Positions 47,159 to 57,081 of a stretch of DNA of 64,000 nucleotides are shown here, one piece after another (the first letter of the stretch is position 1; the number at the start of each line of letters is the position of its first letter). The position numbers and the translations under genes were made by a program. The DNA comes from Escherichia phage vB_EcoM-P3322: the sequence record PV191315.1; one strand, given 5' to 3'. The notes beneath the pieces were generated by a model. That model was not told the DNA's origin and did no database searches. It saw nothing but the letters and a program-made list of their open reading frames with translations.

Positions 47159-47815
47159 ATGACTATTAAACATATCTCTTTTGATGTATGGAACACACTG
47201 ATCACAGCAAACTCCAATTACGCAGACATGCGAGCCTGGACTATCGCAAAATATGGAGATATTACGGAAGTGGAAGCAAGAGCAGCTTATAAAAAGATCA
47301 AAAAGGAACTGGATAATGCAGCACTTCAAGGCAAAGCCGAGTGTGCAGCATATGCTTGGGAAAGACTTGGTTCTGAACTTGGGATAACGCCTTGGAAGTC
47401 TGCAAAGCTTCGTTTCGAGTGTGAACAGTGGTTCCTTAAGTTTCCACCACACGTAGCCGTGGATCTGCCGATGTACTTGCTGTATCTTTCGGGGCGTTAT
47501 GATTTGAGTATTAAGAGCAATACCAACTTCATATCAGGGGATATCCTGCGTCGTGCTTGTAAGTTTGATAGTTGGAATTGTTTTGAGTTCACCCATTTCT
47601 CGGATGAAGCTTTACTTTGTAAACCAGATCCGCGATTCTTTGCTCGCACGCTCACGTATTCTCCGATCCCTCTGTTAGGGCACGAAGTGTTGCACGTAGG
47701 CGATAGTGAAGAATATGATGGAAAATGTGTTGACTTAGGATTTAACTTCTGTCATATTAAGAACCCTAACGACTTACTAGAGAAACTTAAAAGAGGAGAA
47801 ATTGTAAATGCGTAA
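47159..47815 (+). CDS. HAD-like hydrolase
   Basis: Motif I FDVWNTL, II LSIKSNTN, III KPDPRFF, IV VGDSEEYD. Confidence 0.7.
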   Translation: MTIKHISFDVWNTLITANSNYADMRAWTIAKYGDITEVEARAAYKKIKKELDNAALQGKAECAAYAWERLGSELGITPWKSAKLRFECEQWFLKFPPHVAVDLPMYLLYLSGRYDLSIKSNTNFISGDILRRACKFDSWNCFEFTHFSDEALLCKPDPRFFARTLTYSPIPLLGHEVLHVGDSEEYDGKCVDLGFNFCHIKNPNDLLEKLKRGEIVNA

Positions 47816-48635
47816 TCAAACTCAAATTTTTGCAAATAAATTTGATGACCTGGAAACTGCTACTTTTGATATCCAAGATTATTCAAAATTGAAATTTGGT
47901 AGTAACCAAGCTGCGCGTCGTATGGGTAAAGAATTGGCACTTCAGTTTTTTGCTCAAGTGGCAATGAAACATATTGGGGAACAATTTGTTATCATTCCTT
48001 CTCCTTATAACCATGTGCATAATGCTGCAACAATGATGACAGATCATTTTATTAATTACTTTAATATGTTGCAATCACAATATGATCAAGGTCGTTCAGC
48101 AGAACTGGACATTATTCATCGTAAAGTTAGCTATATCAACGATTATGGTTTCTTGGATAAAGCTAGTCGTAAGAAACTTATTGATGGGGATACATTCTAC
48201 TGCAACAAAGAATTCTGGGGTGATAAGAAGCTTGTATTCATTGATGATGTAAATATCACTGGAACGCATGAAGACAAACTGATTGAGATCCTTGATGAAA
48301 ATCAAGTTAAAAATGATGTTTACTTCCTGTATTTTGCAAAATACGAAGGTAATCAAGCAGATACCGAAGCTAAACTGAATTTTAACTACATTAATACACC
48401 AGAAGCGTTTGTTAAAATGATTAATGAAGAACGTGATGCACAGTGTCTTGTTCGTCCTATTAAGTATCTTATGGGCCAAAATCATGAAGACTTCAAAATC
48501 ATTCTTAGCCAATTGCCACATTACTATGTAGAGCAACTTTTCTTTGGATGCTTGGGAGAAGGTTACAACCGAATTTCAAAGTATGCTGAAAACTTTGAAT
48601 TCTTGGATCGTTACACAAAACAACACATTCTGTAA
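47808..48635 (+). CDS. phosphoribosyltransferase (type I PRTase)-like protein
   Basis: PRPP-binding-loop-like KKLVFIDDVNITGTHE; 8-nt overlap with HAD gene. Confidence 0.55.
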   Translation: MRNQTQIFANKFDDLETATFDIQDYSKLKFGSNQAARRMGKELALQFFAQVAMKHIGEQFVIIPSPYNHVHNAATMMTDHFINYFNMLQSQYDQGRSAELDIIHRKVSYINDYGFLDKASRKKLIDGDTFYCNKEFWGDKKLVFIDDVNITGTHEDKLIEILDENQVKNDVYFLYFAKYEGNQADTEAKLNFNYINTPEAFVKMINEERDAQCLVRPIKYLMGQNHEDFKIILSQLPHYYVEQLFFGCLGEGYNRISKYAENFEFLDRYTKQHIL

Positions 48636-48648
48636 TAAGGAGCTAAAA

Positions 48649-49122
48649 ATGCTTAAAATTAAAACAGGTAATCTTATTGATGCCGCTAAAGCAGGTGAAG
48701 TAACTGTTATTGCTCATTGTTGCAACTGTATGTGTAATATGGGGGCAGGTATTGCCCCACAAATCAAACGAGCATTTCCTTACGCATATGCAGCAGACTT
48801 AGACACAATGGCTGGTGATCAAAGTAAACTAGGTTGTTTTAGTTTAGGGGTGCCAGACGAACAATCCGACCCTTTGGTATATAATCTATACGGGCAATAC
48901 CGTTACGGATACAATGCTAAAGGTCGTCAGTTGGACTATGATGCACTTTACGATGCACTAATAGCTATGGCTAACGATTTGCTTCTCCGTGACCAAAAAT
49001 GTAAGATCGGCTTACCTATGATTGGCGCTGGATATGCTGGAGGTAATTGGGCTATCATCCAAGTGATGATTGAAGAAACTTTAGTAAAAACAGGTCACGA
49101 TGTGACTATTTATAAACTTTAA
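48649..49122 (+). CDS. macro-domain-like protein
   Basis: Start at ATG 48649 after AAGGAG; GNLIDAAKAGEVTVIAHCCNCMCNMGAGIAPQIKRAFP and GLPMIGAGYAGGNWAII resemble macro-domain loops. Confidence 0.55.
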   Translation: MLKIKTGNLIDAAKAGEVTVIAHCCNCMCNMGAGIAPQIKRAFPYAYAADLDTMAGDQSKLGCFSLGVPDEQSDPLVYNLYGQYRYGYNAKGRQLDYDALYDALIAMANDLLLRDQKCKIGLPMIGAGYAGGNWAIIQVMIEETLVKTGHDVTIYKL

Positions 49123-49134
49123 GAGGAGATTAGT

Positions 49135-49356
49135 ATGGGTGTTTTTGCAGGTATTGTTGCAGTGGTAAGCTTTTTTGTTATTGCTTTTATGCTTAGTTTG
49201 ATTCCAGCTTGGTTACTGTTGCTGGCTTACAACTATGTTGCTGAAGTTATGGGTCATGCAGATATCACTGTCCCAGTAACCTTCTGGACCGTGGTTTGTG
49301 TTTCGTTTATTCTGGCTGTATTACGAGGAATCTTTTCCTCTCATTCAACAAAATAA
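49135..49356 (+). CDS. small membrane protein
   Basis: 73 aa, two TM helices. Confidence 0.5.
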   Translation: MGVFAGIVAVVSFFVIAFMLSLIPAWLLLLAYNYVAEVMGHADITVPVTFWTVVCVSFILAVLRGIFSSHSTK

Positions 49357-49359
49357 GTG

Positions 49360-49418
49360 TTGACATAGTTCTTAAAAAGAGTAAGATGTATCACATGAAG
49401 CGGGGAATAGTTCCCCGC
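49360..49418 (+). promoter_or_regulatory. promoter + 5' GC-hairpin module upstream of terC
   Basis: TTGACA (49360-49365), 16-nt spacer, TAAGAT (49382-49387), GTATCACAT, hairpin GCGGGGAATAGTTCCCCGC; same class as the minus-strand modules. Confidence 0.6.
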
Positions 49419-49435
49419 AAAGAGAGGAGAAAAGA

Positions 49436-50410
49436 ATGCAACTTGGTTTCCCAATTATTGATGTAGTTGTTTTAGTTGGTATTTTAGCATTGTCTATTGG
49501 TATTGATTTCTTTGGTCACAAAGAAAATAAAGAAATTTCATTCAAATCCGCAGTTGGTTGGTCGATCTTTTGGATTGGTGTATCATTAGCTTATTATGGT
49601 TTTGTATACTTCCAACATGGTGCCGATTTTGCTAACTTGTTTTTAAGTGGATATGTGTTGGAAAAATCTTTGTCGGTAGATAACTTGGTAGTATTTGTAG
49701 CAGTATTCGCAAGTTTTGGTATTAAAAGCACACACTTGCAGCACAAGATTCTACTTTGGGGTATTGCAGGTGCGATTGTCTTCCGAGGTGTGTTTGTAGC
49801 AGTAGGCACTTACTTGTTAAGTTTGGGCTGGTATGTTAATATCTTCTTCGGTGCGGTCATCCTTTTCTGTGCAGCTAAAATGGTATTTGCTGGAGATAAT
49901 GACGCAGAAGTTGATTACTCTAAACACTGGGCTACCCGTATTGTTCGTAAACTGTTCCCTGTATCTAATAAAATGGATGGGGAGAAGTTCTTCACAATCG
50001 AAAATGGTGTTCGTGTAGCAACTCCAGCTTTGGTTTGCGTATTCGTGATGGAAATGGTGGATGTAATCTTTGCAGTAGATTCGGTTCCAGCGGTGATCGC
50101 AGTGACACAAGAACCCCTGCTTGTATTCTCTTCGATGTTATGTGCAATCTTAGGTCTACGTGCTCTGTTCTTTGTTCTTAGTGTCGCACTGAAGTATCTG
50201 GTTCACTTGGAGAAAGCAGTTATTGTGGTTCTGGTGTTTGTAGGCGTTAAACTGATGTATCACCCGTTTGCAGAAACATTGCATGAGAAAATGAGTTTCC
50301 TGCCAGCACATATTGATCCAACTATTAGTATGTATATCGTGCTTGGTACTTTGGCCCTTGGTGTTATTGCAAGCTTTATCTTCCCTGAAAAAGAAGAAGC
50401 TACTGTTTAA
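49436..50410 (+). CDS. terC: TerC/Alx-family integral membrane protein
   Basis: Multi-pass membrane protein with YVLEKSLSVDN and FAVDSVPAV...ILGLRALFF signatures. Confidence 0.85.
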   Translation: MQLGFPIIDVVVLVGILALSIGIDFFGHKENKEISFKSAVGWSIFWIGVSLAYYGFVYFQHGADFANLFLSGYVLEKSLSVDNLVVFVAVFASFGIKSTHLQHKILLWGIAGAIVFRGVFVAVGTYLLSLGWYVNIFFGAVILFCAAKMVFAGDNDAEVDYSKHWATRIVRKLFPVSNKMDGEKFFTIENGVRVATPALVCVFVMEMVDVIFAVDSVPAVIAVTQEPLLVFSSMLCAILGLRALFFVLSVALKYLVHLEKAVIVVLVFVGVKLMYHPFAETLHEKMSFLPAHIDPTISMYIVLGTLALGVIASFIFPEKEEATV

Positions 50411-50416
50411 TAAATG

Positions 50417-50440
50417 AGCCTCCTTCGGGAGGCTATTTTA
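50417..50440 (+). terminator. intrinsic terminator
   Basis: AGCCTCCTTCGGGAGGCT hairpin followed by ATTTTAT. Confidence 0.65.
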
Positions 50441-50452
50441 TAGGAGAGACTT

Positions 50453-50803
50453 ATGAGTAATTTTGATGAAATTCAAGAACTTGTTTGGGATTTATCTGGT
50501 GATGTGGATTACATTTCAGATTATCTTTCAAAAGTTTACCCTGGGGTAAGCGTTATGATTGTGACCAAAGATCCAATTAATTTGCCTCCTAACGTGGTAG
50601 CTTGTTGTGGAAGTGGTTCAGGAGAAGTAGAGCCTGTATCTCGTTGGGAATTAACTAAAGCTGTTTCAAAACGAAATGGTGAAGTTTTGAATATTGATAT
50701 CGAACAAATATGGACTTCTCCAGCAGCCAAATGGAATGATCCTAATGGTTGGGATTTGTTCTTCTGGGATAATGAAACTGATGATGAGGTATTTTTAAAA
50801 TGA
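50453..50803 (+). CDS. hypothetical protein
   Basis: 116-aa acidic ORF. Confidence 0.5.
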   Translation: MSNFDEIQELVWDLSGDVDYISDYLSKVYPGVSVMIVTKDPINLPPNVVACCGSGSGEVEPVSRWELTKAVSKRNGEVLNIDIEQIWTSPAAKWNDPNGWDLFFWDNETDDEVFLK

Positions 50804-51045
50804 AATACTTGTTGGTTGTGTTTGAAAATATTTGTTTTGCAATAGGGTTGTTTGTTGTAATTTTTGTATTGACAAGCGTAATCAACGGCAGTAAAGTGAG
50901 TTTATACCGAGATGGAGAGCAACTCTATTGCTTCTCTGGAGATTTCAAACACAGATGTATTAATAGTCAAAATGAGGAAAGCAAATATGAAAAAACTAGC
51001 CCTGATTTTAATTGGTTGTATCTTTTTAACAGCTTGCGAGGATGA
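50800..51045 (+). CDS. hypothetical membrane protein (uncertain)
   Basis: ATGA overlap with upstream stop; N-terminal TM helix; 3' end overlaps lipoprotein gene. Confidence 0.35.
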   Translation: MKYLLVVFENICFAIGLFVVIFVLTSVINGSKVSLYRDGEQLYCFSGDFKHRCINSQNEESKYEKTSPDFNWLYLFNSLRG

Positions 51046-51424
51046 AACAAATCCTGCACAATACCAACAACCTCCTCAACAATACACTCAACAAGGATCT
51101 GACGGAGATACAACTATTATCAACAATGGTGGCGGTTCTAGTAGTAGTGGTGTTGGTGAGTTTGCTACAGGTATGTTGTTAGGGCATATGATGAGTGGCA
51201 GTAGTAATCGTAGCAGTGGTGATTATAACGATAACAGAACGATTATTAATAAGCATTATAATACACCTAAACCGAAAACTAATTTTTATGGTAAGCCTAA
51301 ACAAGAGATAAAAACTTATGAAAAGCCGAGACAAACTTTTAAAACAAATAGTAGCTATACAACTCGTAAATCTTACAATAGCCCTTTAAGTAAAAAGAGT
51401 TCATCTCGTAGCAAGCGACGTTAA
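50987..51424 (+). CDS. putative lipoprotein
   Basis: Start at ATG 50987; lipobox MKKLALILIGCIFLTAC; Gly/Ser/Asn-rich middle, basic C-terminus. Confidence 0.5.
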   Translation: MKKLALILIGCIFLTACEDETNPAQYQQPPQQYTQQGSDGDTTIINNGGGSSSSGVGEFATGMLLGHMMSGSSNRSSGDYNDNRTIINKHYNTPKPKTNFYGKPKQEIKTYEKPRQTFKTNSSYTTRKSYNSPLSKKSSSRSKRR

Positions 51425-51438
51425 TAAGGAGAAAAACA

Positions 51439-52032
51439 ATGACAATTTCTATTCGTACTTCCATCGTAGGTGTTAAAAGGTTGCCTAATGCTTTGCAAAT
51501 CACACGCGCTTTGAGGGATACATTCTCTGCTGTGGACGAGCATAAGATGCTTGATAATCTTTCAAATTGGCCCTATTTCCATTATTTTAAAAATGAAGAT
51601 GACGAGTTTATAGACGCTGTTTCTTATGGTTATGATTTCGGTAAGGAGGTTTCTGCTGAAGAATTTGTAGCTATGGTGTTCCCAAACGGTTTGCCTACTC
51701 GCAGTAAACGTAAAAAAGGACCAAAAAACAAGAAACGTGCTACTAATAAAGCTACCATTTTCTTTACTGATGGCACACAATATACGATTAAAGATTTTGA
51801 AGAGGTATCTTATACAGCAGGTGGGAATCTTTCTTTCTACACCATCAAAAAACAAAACTCTACGTTCAGCCATGTTTCTAACATGATTGAAATGTTAGTA
51901 GAAGATATTGAAAGCGTGGCTGTGTTAGGTATGCATAAAAGCTTTTTAATTACAAATATTTCAGATTTCAGTGCAAGTTTATCTGGCCCTGATTTTGAAG
52001 CCACGACCACGCATTTCGCTTTTAAGGTGTAA
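51439..52032 (+). CDS. hypothetical protein
   Basis: 197-aa ORF. Confidence 0.5.
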   Translation: MTISIRTSIVGVKRLPNALQITRALRDTFSAVDEHKMLDNLSNWPYFHYFKNEDDEFIDAVSYGYDFGKEVSAEEFVAMVFPNGLPTRSKRKKGPKNKKRATNKATIFFTDGTQYTIKDFEEVSYTAGGNLSFYTIKKQNSTFSHVSNMIEMLVEDIESVAVLGMHKSFLITNISDFSASLSGPDFEATTTHFAFKV

Positions 52033-52035
52033 GTT

Positions 52036-52626
52036 ATGCATACCGAGAGAGACTTGCAACTCTTGTGGTGGGAAGTGATGCAGGAAATAAAAGAAGATTT
52101 TCCTGCTTACTACAACATGTTACGTGAAGCAGGATATAAAGCTTGTGTTAGAAACAAAGTGAATAACTCTTTCGGTTGGTGCAACTACCGAGATAAAATT
52201 GTTGTTGTAAATTGGCACTTGCATAAGAACTCCACAAGAGATATGATCGTGGATACAATGAAGCACGAAATTGCTCATGCTATTGATGGTTGTATGGGTA
52301 AGTTTAGTAGGCACGGTGCTCATTGGCAAAAACTGGCAGCAGAATTAGGGGCTAATCCTAAAGCCACTTCCAAAGAGCCGTTGAACCACGAATATAAATA
52401 TGTTCTTGTTCTGGTAGATAGGTTTGCGACAAGATGTGTTAGAGGTTATAATCGTAAACCTAATCGCATGTACCCAGGTAAGCAACCTAATATGTGGTTG
52501 AAATCAGATAAAGAAGGGACCGAAGGAAAATTATGGTTGTATAAATGGGACGATTGGGTTAAAGTAGCTAAAGAGTACGGTGTTTCACCATATATAAGAG
52601 ATGCAGAAGAGGAGAATGAAGAATGA
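52036..52626 (+). CDS. SprT-like zinc metalloprotease-domain protein
   Basis: HEIAHAIDG (HExxH) followed by HGAHWQ. Confidence 0.6.
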   Translation: MHTERDLQLLWWEVMQEIKEDFPAYYNMLREAGYKACVRNKVNNSFGWCNYRDKIVVVNWHLHKNSTRDMIVDTMKHEIAHAIDGCMGKFSRHGAHWQKLAAELGANPKATSKEPLNHEYKYVLVLVDRFATRCVRGYNRKPNRMYPGKQPNMWLKSDKEGTEGKLWLYKWDDWVKVAKEYGVSPYIRDAEEENEE

Positions 52627-53735
52627 CAAGTCCATTTTTAAAAGCAGCTACTGGTGGTCAGAAGAAGCCTGAAATGAGCGTATTTGCTGCAACAACAGAT
52701 GCAAGTAAATCTGTATTCGCTCCAAGCGTGTTAGATGCCAGTCCTGTTTATGCACCAGCGGCACCGCAAGAAGTTCCAGTTTTGCCTTCTATGACCCGAC
52801 AAGAGATCGAAGAGATTGGGGCAGAGGCAGGAACAACCTTGCGTTCCTTGAATGCCGAGGTATTAAAACATCAACGTAGTAATCAAGGCGATCAGATGAG
52901 TGAACGACTCACAGCTTTGATTAAACAGGCAAAACAACTTGATCCAAACTCTATTAAACAAAGCAAGGGTATTACTAAACTCATTAAAAAAGTTATGGGT
53001 ATGAAAGAAGATCTGTTTGGGGAGTTTGATAATGTTAATAACCGTATTGAAGAGTTGGTAAAGAACCTTCAAATGGATATTCGCAAAGAAGAAGATTCCT
53101 TGGTATATCTTGAAAAGCTACATCAAGCTATTGGACAATATGCTGCAAGTTTGAACCGAGATATGCAGCTTCTAACAGCAACCTATGAAAAAGAAGAACA
53201 AGCTTTGGCTGCTCTTCCAGAAGATGCAGTAGAACAGCGACAAGTGATCCGAGATACTTTGGATCTTCTGGAGATTCGTATTGCAGATTTAAAAGCATTG
53301 CGCCTACTGTGTGTCCAAATGGGACCGCGTGTACAAGGTATGCAAAAAGTTTCTGCAAGCTTAATGCGATCTGCGCGTAACATAGTAAATAATGTTATTC
53401 CTGCTTACTCTGCTAACTTCTCAATGTATATCGAGAGCTTACGTCAAATGAAAGCAGCAGAGACGCAGAATAACGTTCTTGATGAATTTAACCTGGCAAT
53501 TAAACTGGGTAGCGATCTTGCCACACAGAATCAGATCGAAGCAGCAGCACTGGCTAACCGTCAAGTGTTGGATATTGAAACTCTGCGTCACGATCAGGAA
53601 AACTTGGTTAAGATGTTGGAAGAAACTAACCGCATCAATACGGAAGCCCGTGCTGCTCGTGTTGATTATATTAATGAAGTTCAATCTCTGGAAGACGGGA
53701 TGGTAGCTGCTGTGAAACGAGGGCTTGGTAAATGA
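52623..53735 (+). CDS. hypothetical helical protein, possibly TelA-like
   Basis: 370 aa, Gln/Glu/Leu-rich helical composition; size and Ter context fit TelA; no motif verified. Confidence 0.5.
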   Translation: MTSPFLKAATGGQKKPEMSVFAATTDASKSVFAPSVLDASPVYAPAAPQEVPVLPSMTRQEIEEIGAEAGTTLRSLNAEVLKHQRSNQGDQMSERLTALIKQAKQLDPNSIKQSKGITKLIKKVMGMKEDLFGEFDNVNNRIEELVKNLQMDIRKEEDSLVYLEKLHQAIGQYAASLNRDMQLLTATYEKEEQALAALPEDAVEQRQVIRDTLDLLEIRIADLKALRLLCVQMGPRVQGMQKVSASLMRSARNIVNNVIPAYSANFSMYIESLRQMKAAETQNNVLDEFNLAIKLGSDLATQNQIEAAALANRQVLDIETLRHDQENLVKMLEETNRINTEARAARVDYINEVQSLEDGMVAAVKRGLGK

Positions 53736-54102: not shown

Positions 54103-54298
54103 CTACGATAACGATCCTAATATTATCCAGTTAACCCGACAAGAACTGATCACAATCATTGAAGATGCTTTTATTGATGGCTGGAATACACAAGATAATG
54201 ACTGGGGTGGACCCGAAGCTTTTCTGGAACATCATAAAACTTATGGAGACTCTTGTGAAACCACTGTAGCTCTTGATAATCTGAAGGAGGGTTTGTAA
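54095..54298 (+). CDS. hypothetical protein
   Basis: 67-aa ORF. Confidence 0.45.
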   Translation: MFNYDNDPNIIQLTRQELITIIEDAFIDGWNTQDNDWGGPEAFLEHHKTYGDSCETTVALDNLKEGL

Positions 54299-54861
54299 TG
54301 GGTTGTTTTAGCTTTTTGTGCAAAGAATCGGGCAAAGCTGCCCTTTCTACTTCTTTCGACGGATCACCTTGCTACCTCTTTCTTTTGAAGGACGGTGTTG
54401 TTATTGAAGAGATGTATGGCAACTATGATAGTTATGGTTGTGTTTTCTCTGGAAAGGAGGATGAAAACGGCGTTCGTGAACGGTTCGAATGGGCTATGGA
54501 TTGGGGTAAGGTTTGTGATTTGATGCATTCCTCAAATCCAAGGGACGGTATCGCTATGGTGCTGGAAGAGTACTTTACAGGTGAAATCCCTACAGAACAA
54601 TCTGACGGAGATCCTAACCAAGGTTGGGGTGATGGTGAAGAAGATCCAGATTGTTTTTTCAGCACAGAAAAGAATAAGTTTAAACGTGTTGACAACCCTT
54701 ATCACAAAGTGCATAATACTCTCATTGAAACAGAAGATGACAAGATGGAAATTGAAGAAGATGATCCTCTTGTAACACTTCCTATAAGTGAGTTACAAAA
54801 GATCACTAAGGAAGCTTACGATTTGGGCTTCAAAATTGGTAGAGGAGGTATGCGTGTTTAG
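54298..54861 (+). CDS. hypothetical acidic protein
   Basis: 187-aa ORF. Confidence 0.5.
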   Translation: MGCFSFLCKESGKAALSTSFDGSPCYLFLLKDGVVIEEMYGNYDSYGCVFSGKEDENGVRERFEWAMDWGKVCDLMHSSNPRDGIAMVLEEYFTGEIPTEQSDGDPNQGWGDGEEDPDCFFSTEKNKFKRVDNPYHKVHNTLIETEDDKMEIEEDDPLVTLPISELQKITKEAYDLGFKIGRGGMRV

Positions 54862-55132
54862 ATTCAATATTCAAGAAGAAAAAAGTCAGGATTTACCTAT
54901 TGCTTTCGAAGATCTTGACGTAGGGGCCACATTCATGTATTATGATGCCTATGAAGACGCAGGGTTGGATACCTACCGTAACTTGGTGTTCATTAAAAAT
55001 TCCACAAACAGTGCGATTTGTATTAATGGATCACTAGCACAACGAGGCTATACTCATTGCATCCCACCAGATACAAATATGGTGGAAGTAGATTTAGAAG
55101 TTACCAATATTACACTTAAGAAGGAGAAATAA
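54854..55132 (+). CDS. hypothetical protein, Ter-associated small paralog 1
   Basis: GTG start after AGAGGAGG; (D/E)DLDVGATFMYYDAYEDAGLD...VTNITLKK parallels 56154-56423. Confidence 0.45.
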   Translation: MFRFNIQEEKSQDLPIAFEDLDVGATFMYYDAYEDAGLDTYRNLVFIKNSTNSAICINGSLAQRGYTHCIPPDTNMVEVDLEVTNITLKKEK

Positions 55133-55133
55133 T

Positions 55134-55928
55134 ATGTCCGAGAAAATCAGCCTGAAAAAACGTCAAGAAAACCTTGCTTTCTCTCTGAAAAAGAATAAGA
55201 ACCTGAACGAAGGTAAGATTGTTCTTCGTGTAGCATGTGCTCTAGATATTTCTGGTAGTATGCATGGTCTATATTCTAGTGGGGTAGTGAGTGATTTTGT
55301 AGGTAAACTGCTTCCTTTTGGTATGCTGTTCGACGATAATCAACAAATTGATATGTGGGCCTTCAATACGAGTTCCCAAGAGCTTACTCCAGCAACAGCA
55401 GATGTTTACGATGACTATGTTGGTAAATGTATGCGTAATGTTCGTATCGGAGGTGGAACAAATTACGCCCCTGTAATGGCGGATATCTACGATGAGTATT
55501 TTGGCACTGTTACTAAATATATTACCACTAAACAAGTGGTACAAGAGGAGGCTCCAAAGAAAGGTTTCTTTAATCGTCTACTTGGTAAAACTGAAACAGT
55601 ATCTGTAGAGCGTGAAAAGGTCGTAGCTGTATCTGAACCAGGTGCTGACGTTACCCCTGGTGTTGTATTCTTCCAAACGGATGGTGAGAATGGTGATCCT
55701 AGTGCTGTTCGTCGTCTTATCGAAGAGAATAAGAATAAACCTATTTATTGGTTCATGGTTGGCGTTGGTAATGAGAAGTTTGGCTTCCTGAAAGAACTGG
55801 CAAATGCTTATGATAATGTTGGTTTTATTGGTATTAAAGATTTAGACTTGACAGATTCAGAGCTTTATGACAAACTCTTATCTGAAGAGTTCGGAGAGTG
55901 GGTTGTTAAAGTAGGTGCTAAAAAATGA
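55134..55928 (+). CDS. von Willebrand factor A domain protein (TerY-like)
   Basis: MIDAS DISGSM...GGGTNY...FQTDGENGD; N-terminal MSEKISLKK like TerD N-terminus. Confidence 0.75.
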   Translation: MSEKISLKKRQENLAFSLKKNKNLNEGKIVLRVACALDISGSMHGLYSSGVVSDFVGKLLPFGMLFDDNQQIDMWAFNTSSQELTPATADVYDDYVGKCMRNVRIGGGTNYAPVMADIYDEYFGTVTKYITTKQVVQEEAPKKGFFNRLLGKTETVSVEREKVVAVSEPGADVTPGVVFFQTDGENGDPSAVRRLIEENKNKPIYWFMVGVGNEKFGFLKELANAYDNVGFIGIKDLDLTDSELYDKLLSEEFGEWVVKVGAKK

Positions 55929-56173
55929 TCGACGAGCTTGCCTCTCAAGTCATAGAAAATTATTGGCGCGAGAGAGAAGCTTTCATTATGCGCAGTCTCA
56001 AAGAGTATTTCATTGGGACTGTGCGAATGGAAGATATTGTAAGTAGAGTAGAGATTCATGTATGGCCTGATTATGAAGAATGGGTTGACAAAGAAAATGA
56101 AAATGCTATAATTCTTCGTATATACAAACCGGAGATAACATTAGGAGGAAGAAGTGTTAAACTTCGAAATTGA
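55925..56173 (+). CDS. hypothetical protein
   Basis: 82-aa ORF. Confidence 0.45.
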   Translation: MIDELASQVIENYWREREAFIMRSLKEYFIGTVRMEDIVSRVEIHVWPDYEEWVDKENENAIILRIYKPEITLGGRSVKLRN

Positions 56174-56423
56174 TGAGCAAAAAGTAAATAAACGATGCCT
56201 TACCATTAAAGATTTGGATGTAGGAGATACTTTCGTCTATGAAAATGCATTTGACGAAAATGGTTTAGACCTTAGTGAAATCATTGTTTATTTAAAAGTA
56301 GATGATGGGGAAAACGATTATTCTGCTGTAGAACTAAACCATCATGCACAATTAGTATCAATCCAAAACACATCTAAGCTTTTGGAAGTAGAATTGACTG
56401 TAACTGGTATTACACTTAAATAA
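56154..56423 (+). CDS. hypothetical protein, Ter-associated small paralog 2
   Basis: GTG start after GGAGGAAG; KDLDVGDTFVYENAFDENGLD...VTGITLK. Confidence 0.45.
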   Translation: MLNFEIDEQKVNKRCLTIKDLDVGDTFVYENAFDENGLDLSEIIVYLKVDDGENDYSAVELNHHAQLVSIQNTSKLLEVELTVTGITLK

Positions 56424-56438
56424 TAGAGGAGACAAAAG

Positions 56439-57041
56439 ATGACTGATAAAATTTCCCTGAAAAAAGGCTCTAGCGAAAAAATTTCCCTGAAGAAAGTTGC
56501 TCCGGCTCTGAAAGAACTGCGCCTGGAATTCTCTTGGAAATCTGATTCTAAACTGGATCTGGATGTAAGTGCACTGGTTTGTCGTCATAATGCCGCTGGC
56601 AATCCTGAAATGTTGTCTGCACGTCATCTGGTTTGCTATGCTAACAAGTTTGATCCTGAACGTTCTACCTTCGCTGGTGACGATGTTCGTGATGGAACTG
56701 GTAGCATGGAGCAGATTGATATTACTCTGGCTAAAATCTCTCCTGATGCACAAGAGATTGCCTTTGTTCTGACCATTGATGATGATACAGGTCTGAAACG
56801 TTTTGGTCATGCTTCTGAAGGTATGCTTAAAATCTTCGACTCCGAGCGCAATGTGGAAATTCTGGATTTTGACTTCCTGGCTCCTGAAGTAGCTGGCAAC
56901 ACAATCTGCCACGTGGCTTCCTTGGTTCGTGAAGATGGGGAATGGAAGCTGAAAGCATATGGTGTAGGTAAAGCTGGTCTGGATATTTGTGATGTGGTGA
57001 TGGCCTTCGGTGGTAAAAAAGAATGGTATGAATGTCCATAA
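56439..57041 (+). CDS. terD: TerD-family protein
   Basis: KISLKKG...LEFSWKS...DLDVSALV...GDDVRDGTG...EQIDITLAKI...IAFVLTIDD...GEWKLKAYGVG follows TerD strand pattern. Confidence 0.85.
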   Translation: MTDKISLKKGSSEKISLKKVAPALKELRLEFSWKSDSKLDLDVSALVCRHNAAGNPEMLSARHLVCYANKFDPERSTFAGDDVRDGTGSMEQIDITLAKISPDAQEIAFVLTIDDDTGLKRFGHASEGMLKIFDSERNVEILDFDFLAPEVAGNTICHVASLVREDGEWKLKAYGVGKAGLDICDVVMAFGGKKEWYECP

Positions 57042-57059
57042 TAATTAACAAATGATTTT

Positions 57060-57081
57060 GAGGGGGAGAAATCCCCCTCTT
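57060..57081 (+). terminator. terminator-like hairpin
   Basis: GAGGGGGAGAAATCCCCCTC followed by TTG (weak U-tract). Confidence 0.4.

Follow-up and report, generated by a model that had tools for sequence, protein, structure and literature searches.

Escherichia phage vB_EcoM-P3322 (sequence record PV191315.1) carries, in its Ter gene cluster, two copies of a small gene, one directly ahead of a vWA-TerF-like gene and the other directly ahead of a TerD gene. Comparison with related phages shows, as far as homology and gene content can tell, that only the small gene was duplicated. We propose, with a probability of about 0.4, that the two copies, A and B, encode lineage-specific proteins that bind other proteins, help the phage Ter module as accessory or assembly factors and were divided after the duplication between the vWA protein and TerD. 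The window, that is the whole stretch of DNA analysed, is 64,000 nucleotides (nt) long, and all positions are counted from its first letter. Ter systems are common in bacteria, plasmids and large phages and are tied to resistance to tellurite, colicins and phages.

Two paralogous small genes adjoin the vWA and TerD genes

The genes concerned are the following.

54854-55132, plus strand: small paralog A, 92 amino acids, GTG start, acidic, predicted SH3-like beta-barrel; family phrog_11278.
55134-55928, plus strand: vWA-TerF-like protein, 264 amino acids, with N-terminal ISLKK...FSLKK, the residues of a metal ion-dependent adhesion site (MIDAS) and a long beta-hairpin insert; family PF10138.
56154-56423, plus strand: small paralog B, 89 amino acids, GTG start, acidic; family phrog_11278.
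56439-57041, plus strand: TerD-domain protein, 200 amino acids, with the classical ISLKK-x5-ISLKK N-terminus; family PF02342.

An earlier reading of the DNA, made from its letters (the original prediction), had described two paralogous open reading frames (ORFs) of about 90 amino acids, each directly upstream of a larger gene and each using a GTG start after GGAGG. These descriptions held. A and B align end to end with 34 % identity and 54 % positives (E=2e-14), and both match phrog_11278, a family annotated as 'unknown function', at full length (4.2e-51 for A, positions 1-92 of the 92 in the profile; 7e-45 for B, positions 1-89). The sequence motifs that the two had been said to share are found in A and B, except that A has AGLD in place of NGLD. 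A single base separates the stop codon of A, whose last base is 55132, from the vWA ATG at 55134, and 15 bases separate the stop codon of B, whose last base is 56423, from the TerD ATG at 56439.

For A and B alike, GGAGG is located 5 nt upstream of the GTG. The orthologues of the small genes in phiWec190, 05F01 and metagenomic relatives use ATG at the same aligned position, which fixes the GTG start sites of A and B, and a Shine-Dalgarno site is present in every orthologue examined. The ratio of nonsynonymous to synonymous substitution rates (dN/dS) for A and B is 0.19-0.35, pointing to purifying selection. All database records examined label the two ORFs merely as hypothetical proteins, the small proteins have no match in Pfam, NCBIfam or PADLOC, and a sequence-profile search of the PDB with them returned only noise (E 0.18 or worse).

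The 3' end of the A-clade genes has a peculiarity of its own. The conserved C-terminal '(K/E)EK' tail of these proteins (KEK followed by the stop codon in A; 55118-55133 in the window, and the corresponding junctions in the related loci L002, L003, L004 and L009) is read from AGGAGAAATAA, a sequence that doubles as the Shine-Dalgarno or ribosome-binding site for vWA. The overlapping signal, and not protein function, has thus probably shaped the tail.

The small gene alone varies in number and position

To delimit the family, 5.8 billion proteins were searched with a profile, which yielded 22 clusters, and 1.84 billion representatives were searched exhaustively with a hidden Markov model (HMM), which yielded 20 matches, 19 of them genuine. 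Full-length members all measure 87-93 amino acids. A 1191-amino-acid match (P0034) was rejected as a member, being an FN3-repeat protein in which identical repeats sum weak scores. In these profile and HMM searches the family is confined to phi92/phAPEC8-like myoviruses and their uncultured relatives.

The original prediction raised the question of whether the family also occurs beside Ter genes in other genomes, and a search found that members in relatives do adjoin vWA and/or TerD. Each member with readable context stands against one or both of these genes, in a collinear block that runs TelA ... vWA ... TerD-Hydrolase_2-glycosyltransferases. Writing S for the small gene, the order is S-vWA-orf-S-TerD in the window, in phiWec190 (L004) and in L009 and metagenomic Phapecoctavirus-like contigs, the intervening orf of the window being orf82 (below). 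A single copy in the order S-vWA-TerD is found in phi92 (Justusliebigvirus) and Klebsiella phage 05F01, whereas the more distant contigs L005 and L008 have vWA-S-TerD and L007 has S-TerD. In L011 and L013 the order is vWA-S-S-TerD, with tandem copies 35 % identical to one another. Two copies of the small gene are accordingly found in two separate lineages, and adjacency to vWA or TerD is kept in members down to about 23 % identity, through side changes and duplication. Because relatives have one small gene together with both large genes, a tandem pair, or none, the small gene alone varies in number and position.

The ORF that separates the two pairs in the window is as follows.

55925-56173, plus strand: ORF of 82 amino acids (orf82, phrog_22387) holding the promoter of B and TerD in its coding sequence; dN/dS 0.22-0.38.

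Since orf82 lies between vWA and B, the two supposed units are not contiguous; phi92 and 05F01 are without it. It was considered as a third, diverged copy of the small gene and rejected (hhalign probability of 0.2 % against the small family). Other candidates for remote membership also proved unrelated: the ORFs in the vWA-TerD slot of the distant phages L014-L016, the ORF of 187 amino acids ahead of A, an ORF of 193 amino acids in L005, and phi92 gp171. The last (L002 7788-8390) is an additional gene of 200 amino acids between TerD and the cell-wall hydrolase, which the window does not have.

A second, unrelated small family was noticed in two of the distant phages. Its members, at 4653-4985 in L014 (110 amino acids, starting MKFLIIYENVPETT) and at 5744-6094 in L015 (116 amino acids, starting MSKNVILIWENIPEST), are upstream of vWA in one phage and downstream in the other, a switching of sides that mirrors that of the A/B family.

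The shared N-terminus is a family hallmark

The original prediction explained the locus by the duplication, as a unit, of an ancestral cassette consisting of a small gene and a Ter protein gene, after which the downstream genes diverged into vWA and TerD and kept their N-terminus as a remnant. The parallel layout speaks for this explanation: each half has a promoter-like site, a small gene with a GTG start and a large gene starting (S/T)(E/D)KISLKK. The homology of the small genes does not extend to the large ones. vWA and TerD belong to different Pfam families, have different folds, and resemble each other only at a motif that is older than this phage.

The vWA product matches PF10138 at 1.6e-37 (130 bits, cutoff 29.4), and its AlphaFold2 (AF2) model, with a predicted local distance difference test (pLDDT) score of 92, retrieves copine, RGLG and integrin vWA domains in Foldseek. 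Among 35 homologues the MIDAS residues D38, S42, T109 and D183 never vary, and conservation of S40 reaches 90 % or more. The same model has a 45-residue beta-hairpin arm (residues 125-169; 55506-55640 in the window) with a family-conserved GFFxxLxGK at its tip, which might bind a membrane or a partner. The TerD product matches PF02342 at 3.2e-28 over residues 5-179. It also aligns with the solved structures 2KXT (Klebsiella TerD, 1.5e-15) and 3IBZ, starting at residue 5. In this alignment 'AGDDVRDGTGSMEQ' pairs with 'GDNRTGEGDGDDE'.

The common N-terminus is real, as had been predicted: the ISLKK dyad is present in both proteins, and in a six-frame translation of the 64 kb window the pattern ISLKK-x(5-7)-(I/F)SLKK occurs solely at the N-termini of vWA and TerD. 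BLASTP similarity between the two is limited to the N-terminal ~29 residues. This segment predates the phage in each family. On the TerD side it aligns residue by residue to 'VSLSKGG-NVSLSK' of 2KXT and also to 3IBZ. On the vWA side, an alignment of 35 vWA-TerF-like proteins, which contains a bacterial protein from Neobacillus vireti, has L7, K9, L18 and K20 conserved at 90 % or above, and TerD-vWA fusion proteins (P0095, P0098) have two to four hxLxK units in the linker immediately ahead of the vWA domain. Given that bacterial TerD, bacterial vWA-TerF proteins and TerD-vWA fusions all have the motif, the sequence comparisons identify the shared N-terminus as an old hallmark of each family and not as a trace of duplication. 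In the AF2 model of vWA the motif (residues 7-20) forms an alpha-helix ahead of the copine/RGLG-like vWA domain. A sequence of this type lies within the beta-sandwich domain in TerD. A recent gene conversion between the two N-termini was also considered and rejected, since the SEKISLKK stretches differ in 5 of 8 codons, all synonymously.

Relatives with a single small gene already hold both vWA and TerD. We reject the cassette model, which the gene comparisons contradict, because in every scenario vWA and TerD already stood beside a single small gene; we regard it as scarcely credible.

The ancestral site of the small gene was likely between vWA and TerD, just upstream of TerD. Neighbour-joining places the A and B clades of the small family as sister groups, with the copies that lie between the two large genes as outgroups; the tree is weak, being built on about 90 alignment columns, and its order is tentative. 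We tentatively assign the duplication to an ancestor shared by the phi92, phAPEC8 and 05F01 groups, with a later loss of B in phi92 and 05F01. Phapecoctavirus would then still have B ahead of TerD and A ahead of vWA, phi92-like phages would have retained A only, and another lineage would carry its copies in tandem. One element of the cassette model may survive for copy A, which could have arisen by a segmental duplication of vWA together with the small gene, followed by the loss of one vWA copy.

Probable transcription units and expression

Three elements mark the probable limits of transcription at the locus.

54689-54717, plus strand: sigma-70-like promoter, TTGACA-17-CATAAT, consensus match of 11/12, inside the ORF of 187 amino acids and 137 nt ahead of A.
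56085-56112, plus strand: perfect extended −10 sigma-70 promoter, TTGACA-16-(TG)TATAAT, 12/12, inside orf82 and 41 nt ahead of the B start codon.
57060-57079, plus strand: GC-rich hairpin after TerD with an 8 bp stem and a GAAA loop (−17.2 kcal/mol, z = −2.7), a possible end of the transcription unit.

With these elements the locus reads as two units, P(54689)-A-vWA-orf82 and P(56085)-B-TerD-hairpin, in which the junctions are tight or overlapping. The first promoter, putative and identified as a consensus match, is conserved in ESCO13 (L001), phiWec190 (L004) and phi92 (L002). The second is the sole 12/12 sigma-70 match in the 64 kb window, where 0.06 would be expected by chance, and it is kept at 12/12 in ESCO13, phiWec190, L009 and L010 despite a synonymous divergence (dS) of 0.9-1.4 in orf82. 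In other lineages promoter-like sites precede the slot gene or TerD. Because B lies between the conserved perfect promoter and TerD, it appears to be part of the TerD transcription unit and to be co-transcribed with TerD. The hairpin at 57060-57079 has no clear T-run, and a terminator scan made no call there.

Codon usage differs along the locus. TerD is E. coli-optimal (CTG for 16 of 19 leucines, 84 %; CGY for 8 of 8 arginines, 100 %), vWA is intermediate, and A and B are unoptimised. The GTG starts and unbiased codons of the small genes, compared with the codon-optimised TerD, suggest that A and B are probably made in lower amounts than their neighbours. A recent host-to-phage transfer was rejected as the reason for the codon bias of TerD: the protein is distant from enterobacterial TerD, which makes very high expression the likelier cause.

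Predicted fold and charge of the small proteins

For the small proteins an SH3-like barrel is predicted. The AF2 model (pLDDT 84.6, predicted template modelling score 0.75) is a small barrel of five strands with one helix, on which the BFVD model of the phAPEC8 protein K7QLS7 superposes with template modelling scores of 0.80-0.83. In structure comparison it comes closest to ribosomal protein L2, KOW, EF-P domain I and Tudor domains. These neighbours, together with the location of each small gene immediately upstream of a gene that it might control, would fit a nucleic-acid-binding regulator of the KOW/Tudor/L2 type acting on translation or transcription of the downstream gene. We consider such a role very improbable. 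Every member of the family is acidic (pI 4.3-5.5, net charge −2 to −11), their alignment reveals no conserved basic patch, and the lack of a Pfam or NCBIfam match also counts against it.

The conserved positions of the family are chiefly core hydrophobics plus G24, T26, F27, Y33 and G37-L38-D39, and nothing in them seems to point to catalysis. The presumed partners present a different picture at their N-termini, where the first 30 residues have a net charge of +5 in vWA and +4 in TerD, each protein being acidic as a whole. With a small family that is acidic throughout and partner N-termini that are basic, a protein binder is favoured over a nucleic-acid binder.

Accessory factors or passengers

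In the reading that we propose, the predicted SH3-like proteins would act as protein-binding adaptors or assembly factors for the Ter proteins with which they are co-expressed, and the duplication would have been followed by a specialisation of A on the vWA protein and of B on TerD. That they may be Ter accessory subunits was already part of the original prediction, and this part stands to a degree: the members with examined context adjoin vWA or TerD, and B shares a promoter-delimited unit with TerD, whereas distant phages have the same Ter block without the family. It is the position of the small gene alone that suggests a Ter role. As a speculative target we point to the basic hSLxK N-terminal segment carried by both vWA and TerD. 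The more specific proposal that the acidic small proteins are dedicated adaptors for the hSLxK-dyad N-terminus of TerD and vWA-TerF, with A serving vWA and B serving TerD, is unlikely. If true, the conserved N-terminal motif would act as a docking peptide and the small proteins would be accessory components of a class new to Ter systems, which would offer a biochemical handle on Ter assembly.

A number of observations weigh against an accessory role in the Ter module. All loci studied belong to one collinear phage lineage, so that adjacency may be inherited synteny and not a functional link. No small-family member is detectable in L014-L016, distant phages that have TelA-vWA-TerD-Hydrolase_2 synteny and vWA proteins 45-51 % identical to that of the window, and the HMM search of 1.84 billion representatives detected no homologue in bacterial Ter operons. 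Phages phi92 and 05F01 manage without B. The small proteins change far more quickly than their presumed partners: A and B are 51 % identical to their L009 counterparts, against 83 % for vWA and 90 % for TerD. The weakness of the small-family tree adds to these points.

Alternatively, A and B may be passengers, that is fast-evolving phage accessory genes (for example for host takeover or anti-defence) that occupy a permissive slot and do a job unrelated to Ter. This would account for the high amino-acid divergence of the small proteins, for a generic fold that many small uncharacterised phage proteins have, and for the absence of the family from bacterial Ter operons and from distant phages with the Ter block. 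It also agrees with the turnover at the vWA-TerD junction, where unrelated small ORFs differ by phage (orf82 here, one of 116 amino acids in L015, one of 46 amino acids in L016, and an empty slot in L014), and with the second small family of L014 and L015 (110 and 116 amino acids), which changes side of vWA as well. Against passengers stands the finding that the small gene is never seen apart from vWA or TerD among members down to ~23 % identity. In addition, B is located between a conserved perfect promoter and TerD, and so appears to be built into the TerD transcription unit, and two copies have been kept in two separate lineages. We view the passenger explanation as a serious possibility, although one well short of even odds.

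The two outcomes have different consequences. If the small proteins truly bind vWA and TerD, they could offer an experimentally tractable partner with which to study the assembly or control of TerD and the TerF-type vWA protein. If they are passengers only, the analysis still corrects an attractive but wrong evolutionary story, since the N-terminus is a family hallmark and not a duplication trace.

The source phage and the wider Ter cluster

The source phage is a phAPEC8-like coliphage of the genus Phapecoctavirus (Stephanstirmvirinae), a group with genomes of ~150 kb. Over 54298-57041 the window shares 99.6 % identity with Dompiswa phage TSP7_1, and dozens of phAPEC8-like coliphages match this region at ~99 %. 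The records of Campylobacter phage B15, Acinetobacter phage vB_AbaM_ABPW7 and Klebsiella phage ZCKP1 also show ~99 % identity to this coliphage region, which suggests that their host labels are wrong or that these records contain coliphage contamination.

The rest of the cluster lies upstream of the small genes.

47159-53735, plus strand: remaining phage Ter cluster, identified by profile matches, with a HAD-like hydrolase, PRTase_3, a Macro domain, TerC, small ORFs, a SprT-like peptidase and TelA.

TerC, TelA, TerD and vWA are thus found together with PRTase- and HAD-type genes on a single strand between 47159 and 57041, the gene content by which a Ter system in the sense of Anantharaman, Iyer and Aravind is recognised. 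The PRTase_3 match is strong (2.2e-41) and the HAD-like match weak. PADLOC models (e.g. TerY-P) gave no match for A, B, vWA, TerD, TelA or TerC.

Three further genes of the cluster deserve mention. A weak Macro-domain ORF (48544-49122) follows PRTase_3 and may be an additional Ter-linked component. The same may be true of the SprT-like metallopeptidase gene (52036-52626), which overlaps the start of TelA (52623-53735) by 4 nt. The ORF at 50912-51424 has a lipoprotein-type signal with a lipobox (MKKLALILIGCIFLTAC) followed by a low-complexity stretch rich in Q, P and S, and may encode a phage lipoprotein.

Comparison with known systems

Phage-encoded Ter systems were reportedly treated by Anantharaman, Iyer and Aravind in 2012. 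The descriptions of phages ZCKP1 and phiKp34 mention Ter genes and not the small ORFs.

Iyer et al. 2021 (PMC7824862) call phage Ter systems of this kind 'relatively complete' and propose for them a role in superinfection exclusion or in tolerance of stress such as membrane stress. The systems described there and the present locus have a common gene set: in each case a large virulent phage encodes enzymes of the PRTase and HAD types together with TerC, TelA, TerD and a vWA-TerF-like protein. They differ in that the published descriptions consulted name no small SH3-like component, whereas here one or two copies of such a gene stand against vWA or TerD.

TerF-type TerD-vWA fusions (P0095, P0098) have in common with the phage the vWA module and the hxLxK repeats that precede it. 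The phage instead encodes TerD and vWA separately and has the small genes between or beside them. A and B themselves are full-length members of the family of uncharacterised phage proteins represented by phrog_11278, phi92 gp174 and phAPEC8 K7QLS7. As a class for comparison we name small SH3-like partner proteins such as FeoA (with FeoB), HspQ (with Lon) and the DUF4176 chaperones of LXG toxins. Taken together, the locus is a known phage Ter cluster plus a lineage-specific extra component.

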